Of a stretch of 29,706 nucleotides of DNA, positions 200 through 16,248 are shown piece by piece (position 1 is the stretch's first letter; each line of letters starts with the position of its first letter). Below the pieces are notes generated by a model. The model was not told the origin of the DNA and did not search any database. It was given only the letters and a program-made list of their open reading frames with translations. Location of the stretch: contig DATMYT010000568.1 of assembly GCA_035560855.1 (NCBI GenBank), positions 1 to 29,706 on the forward strand, written 5' to 3'. Position numbers and translations under genes: made by a program. Origin of the DNA: Negativicutes bacterium. Lineage in GTDB: Bacteria > Bacillota > Negativicutes > UBA1444.

Positions 200-1660
200 T
201 TATTTTTTCTCCGTCGCCTTGGCCGCTTCCCACATTTCATCCATCGCTGTTAGATCAAGATTCTTCCATTTCAGCCCCTTCGCACGGACCGAAGTCTCCA
301 CTTGTTGAAAACGCCGGATGAACTTGTTGTTGGTTCCGTTCAGCGCTACTTCCGCCTCGATGCCTAGAAAACGCCCCAGATTAACTACGGCAAATATGAC
401 ATCACCAAGTTCATCTTCGATTTTCACCTTGTCTCCGCTTGTTTCCGCTTCCCGCAACTCATCCAGCTCTTCGGCTACCTTTGCCCATACGGGAGCAATG
501 TCGTCCCAATCGAATCCAACTTTAGCCGCTTTCAGCTGCAATTTATTCGCCCGTAACAGCGCCGGCAACCCTTTGGGAACGCCGTCAAGCGCCGACTGCG
601 GCTTGACCGTCTTTTCACGCCTTTTGATCGCATCCCAGTTCACGATGACTTCGGCCGCATCACGAACCGAGATATCGCCAAACACGTGAGGATGACGCCG
701 GATTAGTTTTTCTGTCACCGTGTCCACGACATTCTGCATACTGAAGTCACCGTTTTCTTCTGCCATGCGGGCATGAAAAACGATCTGCAGCAACAAGTCA
801 CCGAGTTCCTCGCACAAATGGGCCGGATCCTTTTCGTCGATGGCTTCCAACACTTCGTAGACTTCTTCGATAATATAGCGGCGCAGGGTGGCATGACTCT
901 GCTCGATGTCCCACGGGCAACCATCCGGCGAACGTAATCGAGCCATGACATCTACCACCGGGTCTAGAGAAAAAGTATTCTGGCGGGGTGAGCCATGCGG
1001 TACATATACGCTGGTCAAATGATCAAACCCGCTCTGTCGGTCCAGTTCAAAAAGCGGCACGCTTTCCACCGATTCGTCAGGCAAGCCCAGATGTCTGGCA
1101 ACAATGACCGGCGCTTCATCCTGCAATCGTTCCATCAAGCTTAGTTTTAATTCGGATGCAATGAATGGGCTAAACACTTGCGTGATAACAAGTCCAGTCG
1201 GCAAATCTGATGGTAACGTCTCGATTTCCTGCGCATCCACGATCGTCATCCCCTGCTGCGGATCAACGCCCAATCGGTTGCAAAGCAATTCAAAAAAGCT
1301 CATCCCTGGTAAAACTCTCACAGGAACCTGCTCCTCCTGTGCCTTGATGCGAATCAACCCCACCGTTTTTTCAGCAACCATCGGGCTGCCGGGCACCGCA
1401 AAGACAACGCTCTGCCCTTGTTGGGCCCGTTTCAAAACATCGGCGGCAATCGCCGCATAAATAGAATCGAAATCAGTTCCTTGTTCATATAAGGCATCAT
1501 AACTTTCAAATACAACCCCGCGCGCCTGCAATTCTCCAACGGTTGGATGAATGGCGGTACGCAATAGCAGCGTCGACGCTTGCCTCACAATATCCCAGGT
1601 TTCCAGACTCATGCAGCCGAACGGTCCCGGTCCCAAGCCAACAATCGTAATACTTCCCAT
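200..1660 (-). CDS. yabN: Bifunctional tetrapyrrole-methylase-like / MazG nucleoside triphosphate pyrophosphohydrolase (YabN family), 486 aa
   Basis: N-terminal GSITIVGLGPG and FAVPGSPMVAE (methylase-like domain); RLRSPDGCPWD, EEVYEV...EELGDLLLQ and a second EELDE...ELGDVIF MazG repeat; conserved position after mfd-yabM. Confidence 0.93.
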   Translation of the reverse strand: MGSITIVGLGPGPFGCMSLETWDIVRQASTLLLRTAIHPTVGELQARGVVFESYDALYEQGTDFDSIYAAIAADVLKRAQQGQSVVFAVPGSPMVAEKTVGLIRIKAQEEQVPVRVLPGMSFFELLCNRLGVDPQQGMTIVDAQEIETLPSDLPTGLVITQVFSPFIASELKLSLMERLQDEAPVIVARHLGLPDESVESVPLFELDRQSGFDHLTSVYVPHGSPRQNTFSLDPVVDVMARLRSPDGCPWDIEQSHATLRRYIIEEVYEVLEAIDEKDPAHLCEELGDLLLQIVFHARMAEENGDFSMQNVVDTVTEKLIRRHPHVFGDISVRDAAEVIVNWDAIKRREKTVKPQSALDGVPKGLPALLRANKLQLKAAKVGFDWDDIAPVWAKVAEELDELREAETSGDKVKIEDELGDVIFAVVNLGRFLGIEAEVALNGTNNKFIRRFQQVETSVRAKGLKWKNLDLTAMDEMWEAAKATEKK

Positions 1661-1663
1661 AAT

Positions 1664-3265
1664 TTATCGCCTCAACAAATGAATTTTATTCAAAAAGTCC
1701 ACGGCCTGCCTGCCGACAGCCGGGATTTTCAACAACTCGCGTTCGCCGATACTACCGACCATCAACAGCAGAACGGCATACACGCCGCCCCCAATCAGAA
1801 TGGCGGTTAACGTCGATAGGGTGTTTCCAATTCCTTGTGCAAAAAGCAGAGTATAAACCCCCAGACTGACAATGCCCATAACAGCAGCAGCGGTAGCAGT
1901 TTTCAAGGTATCTTTGACATCCAGGACAAAACCAATGGAGCGGTAAATAAAGAACATATTCAACAGTGCGGCAAACCCAAAGTCGGCGATCGTCGCCCAT
2001 GCAGCGCCAACAATACCGACCGATGGCATCGCCGTAAACGTCCAGCTCAGCACCACCTTGATCCCGGCAGATATAACCATATTCATGACAGGAACTGCTG
2101 TGCGGCCCAAGCCTTGAAGTACTCCGGTCGTAACCTGATGAATTCCTAAGAGGAAAATCCCCAACGCAGAAATGGCGATGCATACACCGGCTTTCGGTGT
2201 AGCATAAAGCATTGTAGATATGGGAGTCGCCAGCAGCCACATGCCGACAAACGCCGGAATCGTAATAAGGTTGGCAATTCGAAGTGCAGTAGAGGTTCGG
2301 TCGTAAATCGCCTCCCGGTCTCCCAATGTGTTGGCTTCCGATACGGAGGGAACTATACTGGCAGCCAGAGATGCGGTAAGAATGGTCGCCATATTAACGA
2401 GCGGCACTGCCATGCCGGTCAGGTAACCGAACAATTCTGTCGCCTGTTCCACCGTGTACCCCGCCACTTCCAGGCGAGGCGGCACGATTAACAGATCAAT
2501 ATTGGATACGATCGGCAGCATGATATTGGCGAGCGACACCGGCAAAGCCAACTTGACGATCCGGACGATAATGGATGTTCCTGACTCTTGCTGCAGTTGA
2601 GGTTGATGTTCCATTTGGTAGTTGCGGTCTTTCCGATATTTCCAGTAAAAAAAGAGCAACACCAATAGCCCTGTAACCGCGCCGGGTCCCGCGCCGAAGC
2701 TTGCTCCCGCTGCGGCGTATTCAAGCCCGCGCGGCAACAAAAAGTAGGCAAAGCCAACCATTGTGATCACGCGAACAAGTTGCTCAGCAATCTGCGAAAT
2801 GCCGGTCGGCAGCATCATCTGCATGCCTTGGAAATACCCTCGATAGCTCGATAAAATGGTAACAAAGAAAATGGCCGGTGCCAACGCCGCAATTGCATAA
2901 TAGGCGCGCGGATCGCGGACATACTGGTGTTCGATCAGCCACCCTGCGCCAAAATATAATAGGATTGAAAATAAAAACCCAGTCACGATCAATAACGAAA
3001 GTGAAATCCGAAAAACCCGGTTGGCCCCCCGATAATCCTGCAGTGCAGCTTTTTCAGCCACTAAAATAGAAATCGCCACCGGAATGCCCGCGGAAGAAAT
3101 GCTCAATGCCAGCAGATATATTGGATAGGCCATCTGATATAGACCGATGCCTTCGCCGCCAAGAAGCCGCGAAAGAAAAATCCGGTTGACTGACCCGATC
3201 ACTTTGACCACAATGCCAGCAACCGTTAAAATCAAGGCTCCTTTAAGAAATTTTTCCTTGCTCAA
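1664..3265 (-). CDS. yabM: MOP-superfamily (MurJ/SpoVB/YabM-type) polysaccharide/lipid II flippase, 533 aa, TTG start
   Basis: KFLKGALILTVAGIVVKVIG, LGGEGIGLYQMAYP, RGYFQG, EQLVRV motifs; many hydrophobic segments; positional match to B. subtilis yabM between mfd and yabN. Confidence 0.85.
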   Translation of the reverse strand: MSKEKFLKGALILTVAGIVVKVIGSVNRIFLSRLLGGEGIGLYQMAYPIYLLALSISSAGIPVAISILVAEKAALQDYRGANRVFRISLSLLIVTGFLFSILLYFGAGWLIEHQYVRDPRAYYAIAALAPAIFFVTILSSYRGYFQGMQMMLPTGISQIAEQLVRVITMVGFAYFLLPRGLEYAAAGASFGAGPGAVTGLLVLLFFYWKYRKDRNYQMEHQPQLQQESGTSIIVRIVKLALPVSLANIMLPIVSNIDLLIVPPRLEVAGYTVEQATELFGYLTGMAVPLVNMATILTASLAASIVPSVSEANTLGDREAIYDRTSTALRIANLITIPAFVGMWLLATPISTMLYATPKAGVCIAISALGIFLLGIHQVTTGVLQGLGRTAVPVMNMVISAGIKVVLSWTFTAMPSVGIVGAAWATIADFGFAALLNMFFIYRSIGFVLDVKDTLKTATAAAVMGIVSLGVYTLLFAQGIGNTLSTLTAILIGGGVYAVLLLMVGSIGERELLKIPAVGRQAVDFLNKIHLLRR

Positions 3266-7414: not shown

Positions 7415-9883
7415 CTACCGTAATCGAGGTCGTACTTCGTCGAGCAATAAATTATCCGGTTGGCGCGGCAACAATGGTGCTTTTCCTGCAGGGATCGGCA
7501 GCGGCTCAATCAAGTTTCGTCCTGAAACAGTTGGTTTTCCCGCAACTCTCTGCCCAATAACCAGTTGGTACACATCTTGTCGCTCATCCCAAGCAAAAGC
7601 AATTTCATGTCGGTCTCCCGACAAGACAATTTCCTGAATCGGCTGGCCGTTTTTCAGCAAAGTTGCGTGCAAGCCGCTTCCCCAGTATCGGAGAGGCATT
7701 CTGAGCGTCAGATTATGCCTATGGTCCCGGTCCACCGGAATGAATCGGCCGAGAAAGTCGAGCGAAAACTCTGCCCCGCCCGCCGCCTCTTTAAGCAAGG
7801 GGCCAACCAAAACCAAAGGCTCAGGCCAATAATAGTCAAGATACTCACGAACCAAAGTGCTCGCCGTTCCAAAATGAAGCAACCCTTTTTGAACATATTC
7901 CCGTTTTAGGAATCCAAGGTGGTCATCTAAAGCCTGATAGTGTTTTCCAACCGTACTTTTCCATCCTTGCGATCCCATAATGAACATCGCATGGGAAAAC
8001 CCGACGATAGAATGCACTCCGGCGCGCACTTTACCCCCATCAACAAATTCATTGACTCCCTGACGAACTTTTTCGTTCAGGACTGCTGTAGAATCGATAT
8101 CGTACATGATAAGCTGGCGCGGCGTCGGACGGAATTCGACAAGACCAAGTTTTTTTAGATCAGTGGCCGGCGCGTTGATGTCATCTTGAGGTGTTAGGTA
8201 TAATGCCTTGCTATAATCACCGGAGGTAATTCCCCCTGCATTTCCATCGGCGTCACTGTTTCCCCATAGTCCAGCGGCCCGATAAGCACGAATGCTCATG
8301 GCCTCTGACTCAGGACCATTTCCAAAATCAAAAGAGCCTGTCCTTGCAGTTAATACCTCTCCTGACGGGAAATAAAGCGTCAATTTATTCAGTTCCCTCA
8401 AATGATAAAACAAAACTCCAGTTCGAGTAGACCGTTGGTTGGCATCTCCCTCAACAGGAAATGAGTGAGCCCACCCGTGACGAAGATGATTCGCCCAAAA
8501 ACCGTCTGTAGCCGCATTATAGGATAATACATTCCCGGAAACTTCGGGATCATAATCCGAGTGCAGGTGCAGCGCGTACTCATGTCCACGCTTAGACTGA
8601 TCGCGAACAGATTGCCGTACCTGGGCCAACGCAGAACGCCAATCTTGTTTTGCGGAAATGCTGGCGGCCCACTCGCCTGCTGCCAGCGCCGGCATTGCAA
8701 GATAGTGAGTCCAGAAAGCCCCATGCTTTTCTGCAATCCGGTTCAGCGCTTCCGCTTTACCAACCAACTGTACCCGGAATTCCTCGGCATCAAGCCAACC
8801 ATTCTGGTTTCCCCAGGCCGTCGGATATCCCGCCGCATCCATCGGTTCCAGATCTTCGGTCATAACATAAAAAATTTTGCCTGGCGCAGGGTCAACCACA
8901 TCGATTCTGGCGACGGTCTGCGCCAGCGTTTTATTGACGCTCAGTTGCAAACTCCATGGCTGTCCCAAATTGACTGTCGAAGCCCTTTGAGCCTTTATTG
9001 TCCATGATAAGGAAACGGTTTCGCCCACAGCAAGTCGGGAAATATTCTGCGTTGAATTCCCGGCAATAACTAACCCATAACCATAGGGCTCCAGCACCCG
9101 AACCGAAAGATTTTCCAGAACCTTATCCGTCACATTGACAACATCCGATACTACGGTAAGAGTGTCGCCCTGCATCGCTTGGGGCGGCACAGACCGCCAG
9201 ACGATTTTAGTTCCTTCCACCTGGGTTCCGGAAGACTTCAGCTCCGTAATCAACGCATGCTGTCCATTACCGGATTCAACACTGACCCGGTATCGGGCAA
9301 TTGCTTCCGGAATGAAGGCCGGAACCTGGGATGAGAAAAGCTCCGCCGGATGAACCTGTTCCTGAACCCAGCCGCCTTGATAATTGTTCGCGAGGCGTCG
9401 GTCAATCCAAACCGTTTTGTCCCTTTTTTCTGGCATGTTGCCTGTAAAGACGTAGCCGACCGTCGCAATCGTCCGTTCATCTTTCCCTATGGCCGCGATG
9501 CTCATACGACCTGTTCCCTGTGTAGAAAGAAATTGAAACCGATATTTCAGCTCAGCGTCCGCATCGTTCATGTCCAAAAAATATTCCGTCCGAGCTCCGA
9601 CACCGGCAGCCATTTCCAATGCTTGCGGCGCAAGTAGTCCTGCACCAGTTACAACACGGGAAAAAGTTTCAGCCCCTTCAGTCACCAAATTCCCCGGCAA
9701 ATTCCACTCGCTTTTCTGGTCAGGTGGTAAATCCTTTAGTCCAGCAACCGCGGAATGCTTCTGCGTGACAGAGTTTATACCGGCCCCCTGAGTTGAGTCC
9801 GGTATAATCGAAGACAGGGACTCGCAACCACTCACAAGGAATAAACAAACTAACAATAACAAACCCAGTACTTTTCGAATCAT
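7415..9883 (-). CDS. Hypothetical multidomain lipoprotein with a putative polysaccharide-deacetylase-like (NodB/CE4-like) catalytic domain, 822 aa
   Basis: Signal peptide with lipobox VSGC (Cys20); Ig-like segment around aa 225-330; TEDLE (342-346), HEYALHLH (434-441), ARTG (513-516), GFSH (628-631). CDS status is solid; function is inferred. Confidence 0.75.
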   Translation of the reverse strand: MIRKVLGLLLLVCLFLVSGCESLSSIIPDSTQGAGINSVTQKHSAVAGLKDLPPDQKSEWNLPGNLVTEGAETFSRVVTGAGLLAPQALEMAAGVGARTEYFLDMNDADAELKYRFQFLSTQGTGRMSIAAIGKDERTIATVGYVFTGNMPEKRDKTVWIDRRLANNYQGGWVQEQVHPAELFSSQVPAFIPEAIARYRVSVESGNGQHALITELKSSGTQVEGTKIVWRSVPPQAMQGDTLTVVSDVVNVTDKVLENLSVRVLEPYGYGLVIAGNSTQNISRLAVGETVSLSWTIKAQRASTVNLGQPWSLQLSVNKTLAQTVARIDVVDPAPGKIFYVMTEDLEPMDAAGYPTAWGNQNGWLDAEEFRVQLVGKAEALNRIAEKHGAFWTHYLAMPALAAGEWAASISAKQDWRSALAQVRQSVRDQSKRGHEYALHLHSDYDPEVSGNVLSYNAATDGFWANHLRHGWAHSFPVEGDANQRSTRTGVLFYHLRELNKLTLYFPSGEVLTARTGSFDFGNGPESEAMSIRAYRAAGLWGNSDADGNAGGITSGDYSKALYLTPQDDINAPATDLKKLGLVEFRPTPRQLIMYDIDSTAVLNEKVRQGVNEFVDGGKVRAGVHSIVGFSHAMFIMGSQGWKSTVGKHYQALDDHLGFLKREYVQKGLLHFGTASTLVREYLDYYWPEPLVLVGPLLKEAAGGAEFSLDFLGRFIPVDRDHRHNLTLRMPLRYWGSGLHATLLKNGQPIQEIVLSGDRHEIAFAWDERQDVYQLVIGQRVAGKPTVSGRNLIEPLPIPAGKAPLLPRQPDNLLLDEVRPRLR

Positions 9884-9892
9884 AATCCCATA

Positions 9893-10819
9893 CTATCGGA
9901 ATTGGGGTGCAGAAGTCGGATTCATAAGCCGTTCTCCTGACATTTCCCCCCGCAACAACCGTCCAAACAAAACATCCGCCAAAGACTGGCTGCTGGGCCC
10001 AAAAATCGTTTCCCACAGGCCGGTATGTCCATATTCGCGTATCACAGGTTTACCCGAAATACCGGCCATTTTTGCCGCCGCATTCACTGCATCTTCCATC
10101 GTACCCATCTCATCGACCAATCCCAAAGATTTTGCCTTTCTCCCGGTATATATCCTACCATCGGCTAACTGACGCACTTTTTCCGGATCCATTTTGCGAC
10201 CTTCTACTACTACGGCGACAAACTGATCATAAAGATCATCCACCATGTCTTGCAGAATAACCCGCTCTGCTTCGGTCATTGGGCGTTCCGGCGACAACAT
10301 ATCTTTGTGGGGTCCGCTTTTTATTTTTTCGCCATGCACACCAATTTTTTTAAACAACTCTTCCCAGTTTGCATACGGAATATACACGCCAATACTGCCG
10401 GTGATCGTTCCTGGATTTGCATATATTTTGTCACAGAGAGCTGCAATCCAGTATCCTCCAGAAGCTGCAATGTCTCCCATCGAAGCTACCACTACCTTAC
10501 CGGTAGCGCGCAATTTTTTCAGTTCCTCCCCGACTTCCTGCGAAGCGGGCGCGCTGCCGCCGGGGCTGTTGATACGAATTACCACGGCCTTAATGCTTGC
10601 GTCATCCCGAGCAGACTGAATCTGGCGGATAACGGAATCCGTCCCACCACCATCGCCAAACAATCCGCCTTGGCCTCGGCCACCTGTTATTACGCCTTCT
10701 ACGTGAATAACAGCCACTCTGTCCACCTGTTCAAAGGGGTGGAATAGCCACCACCCCATCAGGACCAGCAAGGCTCCGATCAAACATAACATCCCGATAA
10801 AGGATTTTCTGCGAGTCAC
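9893..10819 (-). CDS. sppA: Signal peptide peptidase SppA (S49, single-domain type), about 308 aa (start moved to GTG 10819)
   Basis: N-terminal TM anchor; RINSPGGS, AASGGYW (catalytic Ser), TGSIGV, KSGPHKD; AGGAGG SD 7 nt before GTG. Confidence 0.93.
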   Translation of the reverse strand: MTRRKSFIGMLCLIGALLVLMGWWLFHPFEQVDRVAVIHVEGVITGGRGQGGLFGDGGGTDSVIRQIQSARDDASIKAVVIRINSPGGSAPASQEVGEELKKLRATGKVVVASMGDIAASGGYWIAALCDKIYANPGTITGSIGVYIPYANWEELFKKIGVHGEKIKSGPHKDMLSPERPMTEAERVILQDMVDDLYDQFVAVVVEGRKMDPEKVRQLADGRIYTGRKAKSLGLVDEMGTMEDAVNAAAKMAGISGKPVIREYGHTGLWETIFGPSSQSLADVLFGRLLRGEMSGERLMNPTSAPQFR

Positions 10820-10835
10820 GCCAGTTCCTCCTGTG

Positions 10836-10864
10836 AAAAACTGTTGGGACAATCCCAACAGTTT
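10836..10864 (-). terminator. Intrinsic terminator after pyrG
   Basis: Perfect 12-bp inverted repeat AAACTGTTGGGA-(3 nt)-TCCCAACAGTTT ending in a TTTTT run on the minus strand. Confidence 0.8.
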
Positions 10865-10882
10865 CAATGTTTATAGAAAAAA

Positions 10883-12911
<2,029 letters not shown>

Positions 12912-14754: not shown

Positions 14755-16248
14755 TCACAATGCCTTCGTCATCGCCTCAGCAACAGTCTTGAGCACGGTC
14801 ATTCGCGCATATTCTTTGGAGTTGGCAGCCACTACCGTCCATGGAGCCTTGTGGGTCGATGTTCGAAAAAGCATTTCATCGACAGCAACTTTATAGGCAT
14901 CCCATTTTTCTCGGTTGCGCCAATCTTCGGCAGTAATTTTCCAGCTTTTTTCCGGAGTATGTTCACGTTCCTCAAAGCGTCGCAGTTGTTCATCCTTATC
15001 AATGTGTAGCCAGAATTTAACAATGACGGCGCCAAAATTCGTTAGTTGCTCTTCAAATTCATTGATCTCACGGTAGGCGCGCCGCCATTCATTCTCTTTG
15101 CAAAAACCTTCCACGCGCTCTACCAGAACCCGACCATACCACGTCCGGTCAAAAATGGTAACGCGTCCTGCCGCCGGCACAGCCTGCCAAAACCGCCAGA
15201 GATAGTGATGAGCCCTTTCCGTATCATTGGGAGCCGAAATCGGCGTCACTTCATAGCCTCGAGGATCAAAATTTTCCACCAGTCGTTTAATAGCGCCACC
15301 CTTGCCCGCGGCATCCCATCCTTCAAAGAGAATCAGGACCGGAATTTTTTTCTTGTAGGTTTCATAATGCAACGCATGGAGTTTGGTTCCCCATCGATCA
15401 ATTTCCTTCTCATATTGGTCTGGTTTCCAATCTTTCGATATAGTGACTTTGTCGAGAACAGATGTAGGAATTTCTGTCGGTGCGCCTACAAAGTCCGGCA
15501 CGGGTAACATCGCTTGCGCTTCTTTTCCCCCTCGCTCCTTTTGCTGAATGCGTTGCAAGAGCGTATCGATGACCGTCCTGCAAATCTTTTCAGCGGCAAA
15601 CCGCCGGTCCATGGCTGCGATCGGCGTCCACGGGCTGCAGTCGCGATCCGTACGGCTCAGGGTTTCCTCAATGATTGTAAGATATTCTTCATATTTACGA
15701 TGTCGGCGCATTTCCACATCGCCCACCCGCCAACGGGTTGCGGGATCTTTTTCAAGTTCATCTATACGCTTTTTCTGTTCTTTTTTCGTAATATGCAGAA
15801 AAATTTTAATCAGAAGGCAACCTGAATCTGACAGCTGCCTCTCGAACGATACAATCTCATCATAAAAAGTTGACACTCGATCATTTTTTGTCACTCCATC
15901 GATCCGATCAGATAGTACTGCATCATACCAGCTTTTGTCATAAATCATAATCTGACCTGCGGCCGGCGTAGTATTCCAATACCGCCACAAAAAAGGATGC
16001 GCAACCACATCACCGTGGCAGAGGTTATTGGCAAAAACCTTGAATCCCCGGGGATCCAAGCGCAATATCAGTTCATTGATCAACGTACCGCGTCCTGCCG
16101 CATCCCACCCTTCAAATACGATAATAGCTGGAATGCCAAGGTCATGTAATCTTCGGTGCAATGCGCCCAGTTGGACTCCTAAGCGATCCATCTGCGTCTT
16201 GAACTCGCTTTTGGAAATCTTTTGTCCTAAATCCAGCTGGTCAAGCAT
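14755..16248 (-). CDS. pap: Polyphosphate:AMP phosphotransferase (two-domain PPK2, class II type), 497 aa
   Basis: Tandem PPK2 domains: FEGWDAAGRG...LDPRGF...DKSWY and FEGWDAAGKGG...FDPRGY...FDRTWYGRVLVERVEGF. Confidence 0.92.
   Translation of the reverse strand: MLDQLDLGQKISKSEFKTQMDRLGVQLGALHRRLHDLGIPAIIVFEGWDAAGRGTLINELILRLDPRGFKVFANNLCHGDVVAHPFLWRYWNTTPAAGQIMIYDKSWYDAVLSDRIDGVTKNDRVSTFYDEIVSFERQLSDSGCLLIKIFLHITKKEQKKRIDELEKDPATRWRVGDVEMRRHRKYEEYLTIIEETLSRTDRDCSPWTPIAAMDRRFAAEKICRTVIDTLLQRIQQKERGGKEAQAMLPVPDFVGAPTEIPTSVLDKVTISKDWKPDQYEKEIDRWGTKLHALHYETYKKKIPVLILFEGWDAAGKGGAIKRLVENFDPRGYEVTPISAPNDTERAHHYLWRFWQAVPAAGRVTIFDRTWYGRVLVERVEGFCKENEWRRAYREINEFEEQLTNFGAVIVKFWLHIDKDEQLRRFEEREHTPEKSWKITAEDWRNREKWDAYKVAVDEMLFRTSTHKAPWTVVAANSKEYARMTVLKTVAEAMTKAL

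Follow-up and report, generated by a model that had tools for sequence, protein, structure and literature searches.

HpPgdA (HP0310) of Helicobacter pylori (3qbu) and the PuuE-like large CE4 subgroup (3rxz, 1z7a, 3cl6) have a (beta/alpha)7 barrel in common, and in HpPgdA zinc is bound by Asp14, His86, and His90, with the catalytic water held by Asp12 and His247 (PMC3084791). In PelA (9cgy), Agd3 (CE18, 6nwz), and PgaB, a CE4-like barrel is placed outside the cytoplasm amid accessory beta-sandwich or carbohydrate-binding modules (CBMs). All three are multidomain deacetylases of exopolysaccharides, located in the periplasm or secreted, and PgaB is a lipoprotein as well. Here, we analyze a gene from a Negativicutes bacterium, located on contig DATMYT010000568.1 (assembly GCA_035560855.1) within a window, i.e., the whole stretch of DNA under analysis, of 29,706 nucleotides. 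The gene occupies positions 7415-9883 on the minus strand and encodes a predicted lipoprotein of 822 amino acids (P0001), whose modeled central domain is a barrel of the same type. Overall, this protein belongs to a known enzyme superfamily, of which it represents an uncharacterized, divergent branch without a Pfam family; its metal-site signature is altered, and its lipoprotein architecture is specific to the lineage.

According to the list of open reading frames (ORFs) and their translations, the interval 7415-9883 is a single ORF of 822 codons running from ATG to stop on the minus strand, and the plus-strand frame over the same interval is riddled with stops. An ORF of this length had been proposed here in the initial annotation, which left the strand unstated; the ORF stands and its strand is now established. 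A word-indexed search with the 822-amino-acid protein returned 191 homologues at E<=1e-3, and an exhaustive search returned 137 homologous representative clusters. Given so many homologues, and given that 70 of the 201 genomes sampled from the class carry it, the ORF is far from a chance product. The public gene call on the contig predicts a protein of 756 amino acids (P0002) starting from an internal GTG at codon 67. This start, which affects the segment 9683-9883 on the minus strand, would strip off the signal peptide and lipobox. Because orthologues at 60-83% identity align across all 822 amino acids, signal peptide included, and because the lipobox is conserved, we prefer the ATG at 9883 as the start codon. 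It lies 9 nucleotides past the stop codon of the upstream gene sppA, in a gap that carries a weak GGGA Shine-Dalgarno sequence, and no terminator-like sites were found between sppA, the gene under study, and fsa.

An AlphaFold2 model of the full protein, built from an alignment of 56 diverse sequences reaching down to ~16% identity to the query, had a mean predicted local distance difference test score (pLDDT) of 87.5 and a predicted template modeling score (pTM) of 0.74. In this model, a signal helix and a tether are followed by a beta-sandwich, an Ig-like beta-sandwich, a (beta/alpha)7 barrel, a C-terminal beta-sandwich, and a tail, which correspond to the following features:

7415-9883, minus strand: whole gene for the predicted 822-amino-acid lipoprotein (stop codon 7415-7417; full-length orthologues)
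9824-9883, minus strand: signal peptide with lipobox L-V-S-G-C, codon of Cys20 at 9824-9826 (motif position; conservation in orthologues)
9737-9823, minus strand: low-confidence linker, residues ~21-49, likely a flexible tether (pLDDT <50 at residues 19-45)
9224-9736, minus strand: N-terminal beta-sandwich, residues ~50-220, possibly carbohydrate-binding (~10 strands, pLDDT 82-94)
8894-9211, minus strand: Ig-like beta-sandwich, residues ~225-330, opening the conserved core (strands 225-330, pLDDT 94-98)
7820-8884, minus strand: predicted catalytic (beta/alpha)7 barrel, residues ~334-688 (model of the separate domain; structural matches)
7553-7816, minus strand: C-terminal beta-sandwich, residues ~690-777, part of the conserved core (pLDDT 89-96; P730 invariant)
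7418-7552, minus strand: disordered Pro-rich tail, residues 778-822 (pLDDT <50 at 783-822)

The domain boundaries guessed in the initial annotation fit this model, in which residues 66-218 are beta-rich, 225-330 form a beta-sandwich, 336-685 alternate between beta and alpha, and 690-777 are again beta-rich. Its proposal of accessory modules likewise agrees with the modeled beta-sandwich and Ig-like flanks; the latter domain (225-330) is matched by PF10633 (NPCBM_assoc/NEW3) in 15 of the 56 aligned members, with a best E value of 1.9e-4, and the same match is precomputed on four homologues. The architecture had also been called unrecognized, and no curated family of Pfam or NCBIfam fits it: the 822-amino-acid protein gave no Pfam match, and its sole NCBIfam match was below threshold and lay on the Ig-like part. 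The claim of lipidation is borne out at the level of sequence by V-S-G-C20, which follows a hydrophobic segment and agrees with the lipobox pattern [LVI][ASTVI][GAS]C. Among 121 close homologues, 104 show a hydrophobic segment and then [GAS]-C, and most of the remaining 17 are N-terminally truncated gene calls that show x-G-C or start inside the mature protein. The protein is thus predicted to be an exported, membrane-tethered lipoprotein.

The N-terminal beta-sandwich is confined to Negativicutes orthologues, and more distant full-length relatives align only from inside the Ig-like domain (residue ~230-260) to residue ~750-780. Protein language-model neighbors of this N-terminal domain include CBM27, CBM30, and Lyase_N clusters (0.90-0.92), a lead according to which it may bind carbohydrates. 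The same search with the C-terminal domain gave scores of at most 0.84 and was uninformative. The 45-residue tail, rich in Pro, Leu, and Arg, is found only in the window's own family, and orthologues from other families stop matching at about residue 776.

Modeled alone (residues 328-690), the catalytic region reached a pLDDT of 94 and a pTM of 0.93. In an exhaustive structural comparison of this model with 48,161 PDB representatives (VIA-align), the best match was 3lm3, a "putative glycoside hydrolase/deacetylase" (Z 21.0; 269 residues aligned at 3.3 A, 12% identity), followed by the putative polysaccharide deacetylase 3rxz (Z 20.5), HpPgdA (3qbu; Z 20.3, 250 residues aligned at 3.4 A, ~11% identity), and the PuuE-like protein 1z7a (Z 19.3). 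Insect chitin deacetylases, ArnD, PelA (9cgy, 15.6), and Agd3 (6nwz, 15.4) scored Z 15-17, and with the classical small CE4 enzymes included the range was Z 12-17. Enzymes of family GH57, including 9jlr, 2b5d, and 1ufa, spanned Z 14-18, with amylopullulanase 7e1y at 18.3 and 1k1w at 16.5. Nearly all top solved matches, at Z 10-21, belong to the glycoside hydrolase/deacetylase superfamily with its seven-stranded distorted beta/alpha barrel. Foldseek also ranked CE4-type proteins first (best E 9e-6, to 3rxz), and the ESM Atlas gave as shape neighbors, at template modeling (TM) scores of 0.72-0.76, clusters without any Pfam domain whose automatic name is "polysaccharide deacetylase family". These models place the barrel in the glycoside hydrolase/deacetylase fold superfamily, of which it is a highly divergent member. 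Foldseek with the full-length model retrieved GH2 enzymes (beta-galactosidases, glucuronidases), and kinship to these was rejected: TM scores were 0.12-0.15 at root mean square deviations above 25 A, reflecting merely a similar order of domain types.

Seven residues, D344, E346, W415, H439, H441, R514, and G516, are invariant in all 56 aligned sequences. H631 (55/56), H393 (53/56), and H655 (51/56) are nearly so, and position 519 is always Asp or Glu in this set. In the AlphaFold2 model, the key residues are placed as follows:

8852-8854, minus strand: codon of D344, end of strand 336-345
8846-8848, minus strand: codon of E346, just beyond the same strand
8705-8707, minus strand: codon of H393, middle of strand 391-396
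8567-8569, minus strand: codon of H439, end of strand 435-440
8561-8563, minus strand: codon of H441, just beyond the same strand
8342-8344, minus strand: codon of R514, within strand 512-515
7991-7993, minus strand: codon of H631, end of strand 623-631

Counted along the barrel, the acidic pair ends strand 1, the two His end strand 3, R514 is on strand 4, and H631 closes the last long strand. Together with an Asp/Ser-rich turn at 542-544, which follows the short strand 5, the conserved residues fall on successive strands, mostly at their C-terminal ends, in the order of CE4 motifs 1 to 5. At the position of motif 1 of CE4 enzymes, T-F-D-D with its adjacent base and metal-binding Asp, the sequence is T-E-D344-L-E346, an invariant acidic pair with Glu for Asp and spaced i, i+2, a spacing also seen in HpPgdA, an atypical CE4 protein. 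Motif 2, H-(S/T)-x-x-H with two metal-binding His spaced i, i+4, is absent: H439-x-H441 is found in 56/56 sequences, and position 443 is His in none of them. At the position of motif 3 (R-x-P-Y, whose Arg orients the base), R514 and G516 occur in the context R-x-G-x-x-[DE], and motif 5 (L-x-H, with the acid His) is present as [F/M/I]-S-H631. A non-significant hhalign alignment pairs R514 with the motif-3 Arg and G-H-E-Y-A-L-H439 with the CE4 segment G-H-E-I-A-S-H84.

The structural alignment to 3qbu opens with model residue 7 on chain residue 2. If strand 1 is assumed to be ungapped, D344 (model residue 17) falls on Asp12 and E346 (model residue 19) on Asp14 of HpPgdA. By this analogy, E346 would be a likelier acidic metal ligand than D344, which would then be the water-activating base. 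These observations bear on several claims of the initial annotation. The motifs it listed, i.e., LVSGC with Cys20, TEDLE (342-346), HEYALHLH (434-441), ARTG (513-516), NSD (542-544), and GFSH (628-631), are all found at those residues, and the five motif-like positions are indeed invariant or nearly so and in CE4 order. Its prediction of a NodB-like (beta/alpha)7 fold is supported by the AlphaFold model and the Foldseek check, in which CE4-type proteins were the best solved matches. Its "full deacetylase-like metal site" of D344, H439, and H441 needs revision: the two His residues and the acidic pair hold up as invariant, but the His pair has the H-x-H spacing and E346 is the more probable ligand.

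Taken together, we consider it somewhat probable, at roughly 0.55, that the protein is a lipid-anchored, metal-dependent de-acylase that uses a CE4-like mechanism on an envelope glycan. The present data show the ORF, the conservation of the lipobox, the fold, the invariant residues with their order, the taxonomic spread, and the synteny; we infer the metal binding, the roles of individual residues, the chemistry, and the class of substrate. Behind the lipobox Cys and a flexible tether, four domains would project into the envelope of a diderm Firmicute: a sandwich that may bind carbohydrate, an Ig-like spacer, the barrel, and a C-terminal sandwich packed after the barrel. A divalent metal would be held by E346, H439, and H441, and D344, positioned by R514, would activate the metal-bound water, with H631 protonating the leaving group. 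In this way, a sugar in an envelope glycan would lose its acetyl group, or another small acyl group, by hydrolysis; the glycan would be peptidoglycan or else a polysaccharide of the periplasm or the cell surface.

Named homologues are all from Negativicutes, namely, Sporomusaceae, Pelosinus, Anaeroselena, Lucifera, and metagenome-assembled genomes (MAGs) labeled "Veillonellaceae bacterium". Genomes with the gene represent 31 of the 80 genera sampled in the class. It is nearly always present in many families (11/12 genomes of f1, 15/15 of f7, 8/8 of f27, 4/4 of f11, and 4/4 of f12) and absent or almost absent from other, large ones (0/34 in f13, 0/32 in f17, 0/19 in f24, 0/11 in f4, and 1/15 in f25). 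Across a sample of the phylum, comprising 401 genomes including G000 and 12 of its own class, a single genome outside the class gave a match.

We compared the genomic context in 24 loci, 20 of them from ~19 further families of the class, two on public contigs, and two belonging to the genus of the window itself. The conserved block reads argS, an rpoE-like gene, pyrG, sppA, a gene for a Yip1-family membrane protein, the lipoprotein gene, a single-domain response regulator, a 209-amino-acid hypothetical protein, fsa, in some cases an M23/LysM gene, mfd, and a spoVB-like gene. Upstream of the lipoprotein gene, sppA was present in 21 of the 24 loci, covering ~20 families, and the order sppA-yip1-lipoprotein gene has short gaps. 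In the window, this neighbor is:

9893-10867, minus strand: sppA, signal peptide peptidase of family S49 (PF01343 at 3.7e-52, TIGR00706)

The window's own family lacks yip1, the response regulator, and the 209-amino-acid hypothetical protein. In most Negativicutes families, the Yip1-family membrane protein gene (7420-7995 in L001; also L019-L033) lies between sppA and the lipoprotein gene. The sppA-yip1 pair may be functional; sppA-yteJ of Bacillus subtilis is presumably a comparable pair. In one lineage (L009 and L015), neither sppA nor yip1 adjoins the lipoprotein gene, and a 763-amino-acid Orn/Lys/Arg decarboxylase gene (8427-10718 in L009 and 8225-10510 in L015, the two being 85% identical) takes the place of the response regulator downstream. 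Some Negativicutes attach polyamines to peptidoglycan, which makes this decarboxylase of possible interest. We take the rpoE-pyrG-spo0F-fbaA-tal region of B. subtilis to have the same backbone as the Negativicutes block, and if this comparison holds, sppA-yip1-lipoprotein gene would seem to be a module that entered an ancient block of Firmicute genes. Beyond the recurrent sppA-yip1 neighbors, the context indicates vertical inheritance rather than function.

The nearby spoVB-like, yabN, and mfd genes raised a link to sporulation, with the protein as a PdaA-like cortex enzyme. We rejected it on account of the disagreeing distributions of SpoIVA and the lipoprotein: SpoIVA was detected in 0/12 genomes of the window's own family (lipoprotein 11/12), in 0/4 of f12 (lipoprotein 4/4), and in 14/15 of f25 (lipoprotein 1/15). 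In the window, the SpoVB-like flippase (1664-3265, minus strand; TIGR02900 at 8e-104, below the cut-off) and YabN (200-1660, minus strand) are encoded, and SpoIVA was not found in this ~90% complete genome or in the 12 genomes of its family, which suggests that the synteny of a sporulation block was kept in a nonsporulating lineage. The pyrG ORF of the window (10883-12649, minus strand) is listed with 588 amino acids, and CTP synthase models match it only from residue 52-54; its true start is probably an internal codon ~50 codons downstream. For a two-domain PPK2 protein encoded at 14755-16248 (minus strand), the match to TIGR03708, the model for polyphosphate:AMP phosphotransferase, exceeds the cut-off (5.9e-189).

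Distant relatives provide the sole functional context. Many relatives of ~900 amino acids carry TPR repeats instead of the N-terminal part, plus an N-terminal hydrophobic helix. PelB and PgaA, which these proteins recall, are TPR partners in exopolysaccharide systems. All three TPR-fused relatives that we examined are encoded inside polysaccharide or exopolysaccharide loci: one with GT4 glycosyltransferase, UDP-sugar dehydrogenase, FemAB-like, and heparinase II/III-like genes; one, in L002, with exosortase EpsH/EpsI, GT4s, a CapK-like gene, and a canonical PF01522/DUF3473 deacetylase; and one with an initiating transferase, an oxidoreductase, a hexapeptide acetyltransferase, a DegT aminotransferase, a GT4, CapK-like, CapA-like, Wzx, and Wzy genes. 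In two unrelated exopolysaccharide loci, a CapK_C gene for an adenylate-forming, CapK-like protein (6590-7993 in L002 and 10668-12062 in L014) directly adjoins the TPR-fused relative, and the two may form a conserved functional pair. Other relatives, of ~950-1000 amino acids, lack a signal peptide; one is encoded between four SLH-domain genes and a GT4 gene, and another near GT2/GT4 genes. Of the 56 sequences in the alignment, 5 matched the 4HBT thioesterase family, and the P0133 cluster has one member with the name acyl-CoA thioesterase. A cluster look-up of ten distant relatives yielded almost no names or taxa apart from one Myxococcales MAG. Overall, the context of the relatives points to amino-sugar-containing, secreted or capsular polysaccharides.

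Several observations weigh against the de-acylase reading. Membership in the NodB/CE4 family, to whose superfamily the initial annotation had likened the protein, failed every test at the sequence level. When all 56 catalytic domains were searched against Pfam at E<=10, none matched CE4/PF01522, GH57/PF03065, or DUF3863, and scattered noise was all that appeared; NCBIfam gave no match for the catalytic domain, and phmmer and a profile of the catalytic domain found nothing for the core among all PDB sequences. A profile of the full protein retrieved from the PDB sequences only TPR proteins, drawn in by the TPR-fused members. With hhalign, a PF01522/DUF3473 deacetylase profile gave a non-significant probability of 4.4%, and nine DUF2194 proteins gave 10.5% over 30 columns. 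DUF2194 (PF09960) and DUF3863 (PF12979), both uncharacterized families, were tested since a language-model search had named them. The former matched one of the 56 members at E 0.28, which does not support membership, and the latter matched 0/56 and was not found in the genome, though control genomes gave no match either. A genome-wide search with PF01522 found three other, canonical genes elsewhere in the genome and not the lipoprotein gene; therefore, routine peptidoglycan deacetylation may not need this protein. The protein belongs to the fold superfamily but, by the family's own sequence model, not to PF01522. Further points of this kind are its position in Negativicutes among housekeeping genes, with no glycan-synthesis neighbor in the 24 loci; the H-x-H spacing, unlike every CE4 motif compared, with which the metal geometry may differ; and the extra near-invariant H393 and H655, which possibly belong to a different or binuclear site. 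Finally, the same fold houses GH57 and GH38 glycosidases, the allantoinase PuuE, and the deformylase ArnD and hence leaves the chemistry unfixed.

The best solved matches include ArnD and the PuuE-like/HpPgdA subgroup, and HpPgdA, whose site is closed, was inactive when assayed on polysaccharides (PMC3084791). The protein might be a same-fold metal-dependent amidohydrolase or esterase whose substrate is something other than a polymer acetyl group, for example, a lipid- or nucleotide-linked sugar (as for ArnD), a small molecule (the case of PuuE and the proposal made for HpPgdA), or some other envelope amide, such as that of a peptide or a polyamine attached to peptidoglycan. The ~950-amino-acid relatives without signal peptide, some of them with a thioesterase domain, suggest cytoplasmic substrates in that branch, and a large Orn/Lys/Arg decarboxylase gene follows the lipoprotein gene in one Negativicutes lineage. 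However, that neighbor is limited to the lineage of L009 and L015, the protein itself appears to be exported and to carry two or three beta-sandwich modules of the kind that characterizes enzymes acting on glycans, and the relatives in exopolysaccharide loci favor a sugar polymer, so that we regard such a substrate as unlikely. A glycoside hydrolase or transglycosylase on a seven-stranded barrel, as in GH57 or GH38, trimming an envelope glycan, strikes us as quite improbable. The GH57 enzymes 7e1y and 1k1w are among the structural matches, and many glycosidases have a domain order similar to the one seen here (beta-sandwich, Ig, barrel, beta-sandwich), with GH2 retrieved by the full-length model at a TM score of only 0.13. 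GH57 enzymes use a Glu nucleophile and an Asp acid/base, and GH38 enzymes have a His-Asp zinc site. In contrast, the invariant Asp and Glu on strand 1, the two His, the Arg, and the late His form a CE4 pattern, as judged from motif order; moreover, CE4-type chains outrank GH57 in the structural comparison, and PF03065 matched none of the 56 domains.

Loss of catalysis altogether is a further alternative. The conserved sppA-yip1-lipoprotein gene order with its short gaps would suit an inactive glycan-binding or scaffolding lipoprotein working with SppA and the Yip1-like protein, comparable to the CE4 pseudoenzyme BA3943; a CE4 pseudoenzyme (7bkf) is among the structural matches, and the motifs are noncanonical. 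Yet seven invariant residues, with two His, Asp, Glu, and Arg at active-site positions, down to 16% identity are hard to explain without catalysis, and the gene persists without adjacent sppA and yip1 in L009 and L015, making a pseudoenzyme very improbable. A bolder version of the de-acylase reading, which we hold to be doubtful, is that the core of Ig-like domain, H-x-H barrel, and C-terminal sandwich founds a new carbohydrate-esterase-like family with a non-CE4 metal site and a lineage-specific role in the diderm envelope tied to sppA-yip1. Its metal site would possibly be Glu/His/His, or binuclear using H393 or H655. Instead of the usual N-deacetylation of peptidoglycan, its role might be to edit the layer, whether peptidoglycan or polysaccharide, on which the outer membrane is anchored.

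Sequence searches of Pfam, NCBIfam, and the PDB miss this family, although seven of its residues stay invariant across very wide divergence; it has a fixed chromosomal position in ~20 Negativicutes families, and in other phyla its relatives are encoded within exopolysaccharide loci. If it were characterized, the metal-dependent deacetylases would gain a further branch, which would probably count as a CAZy-type family of its own, and it would become clear whether the canonical Asp-His-His triad can be substituted by an H-x-H/Glu site. Such work would also identify an activity that modifies the envelope of diderm Firmicutes, a group in which little is known of envelope biology. No new principle is at stake, the fold and the likely chemistry being already known.

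Among known systems, the best solved match, BDI_3119 of Parabacteroides distasonis (3lm3), is itself uncharacterized and offers no functional information; no paper in the library searched mentions it. P0258, a PF01522 plus DUF3473 deacetylase of the PEP-CTERM type of locus, shares the L002 exopolysaccharide locus with a TPR-fused relative of the lipoprotein. It resembles the lipoprotein in T-V-D-V-E-D versus T-E-D-L-E and in G-H-E-I-A-S-H versus G-H-E-Y-A-L-H, and ESM Atlas clusters of its PF01522 plus DUF3473 type match the barrel at TM scores of 0.57-0.58. However, P0258 has the canonical H-S-x-x-H and ~300 amino acids, without accessory domains, and is the deacetylase type that aligned so poorly with hhalign. 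With HpPgdA, the lipoprotein shares the acidic pair of strand 1 at i, i+2 (Asp12-x-Asp14 versus D344-x-E346) and the late His acid (His247 versus H631). In contrast, the His pair is H86-x3-H90 in HpPgdA and H439-x-H441 here, and the presumed acidic ligand is Glu here instead of Asp; HpPgdA has one domain and forms a tetramer in the cytoplasm, unlike the four-domain lipoprotein, and there is no match between the two at the sequence level. PelA, Agd3, and PgaB are similar in overall layout, with a barrel amid accessory modules outside the cytoplasm, although PelA and Agd3 are structurally less similar than the PuuE-like group and differ in domain order, PgaB was not among the structural matches listed, and the Negativicutes gene has no adjacent synthase or export genes. 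On these analogies, the lipoprotein would work most like the atypical PuuE-like branch of CE4, represented by HpPgdA and 3rxz, and its architecture resembles that of PelA, Agd3, and PgaB.

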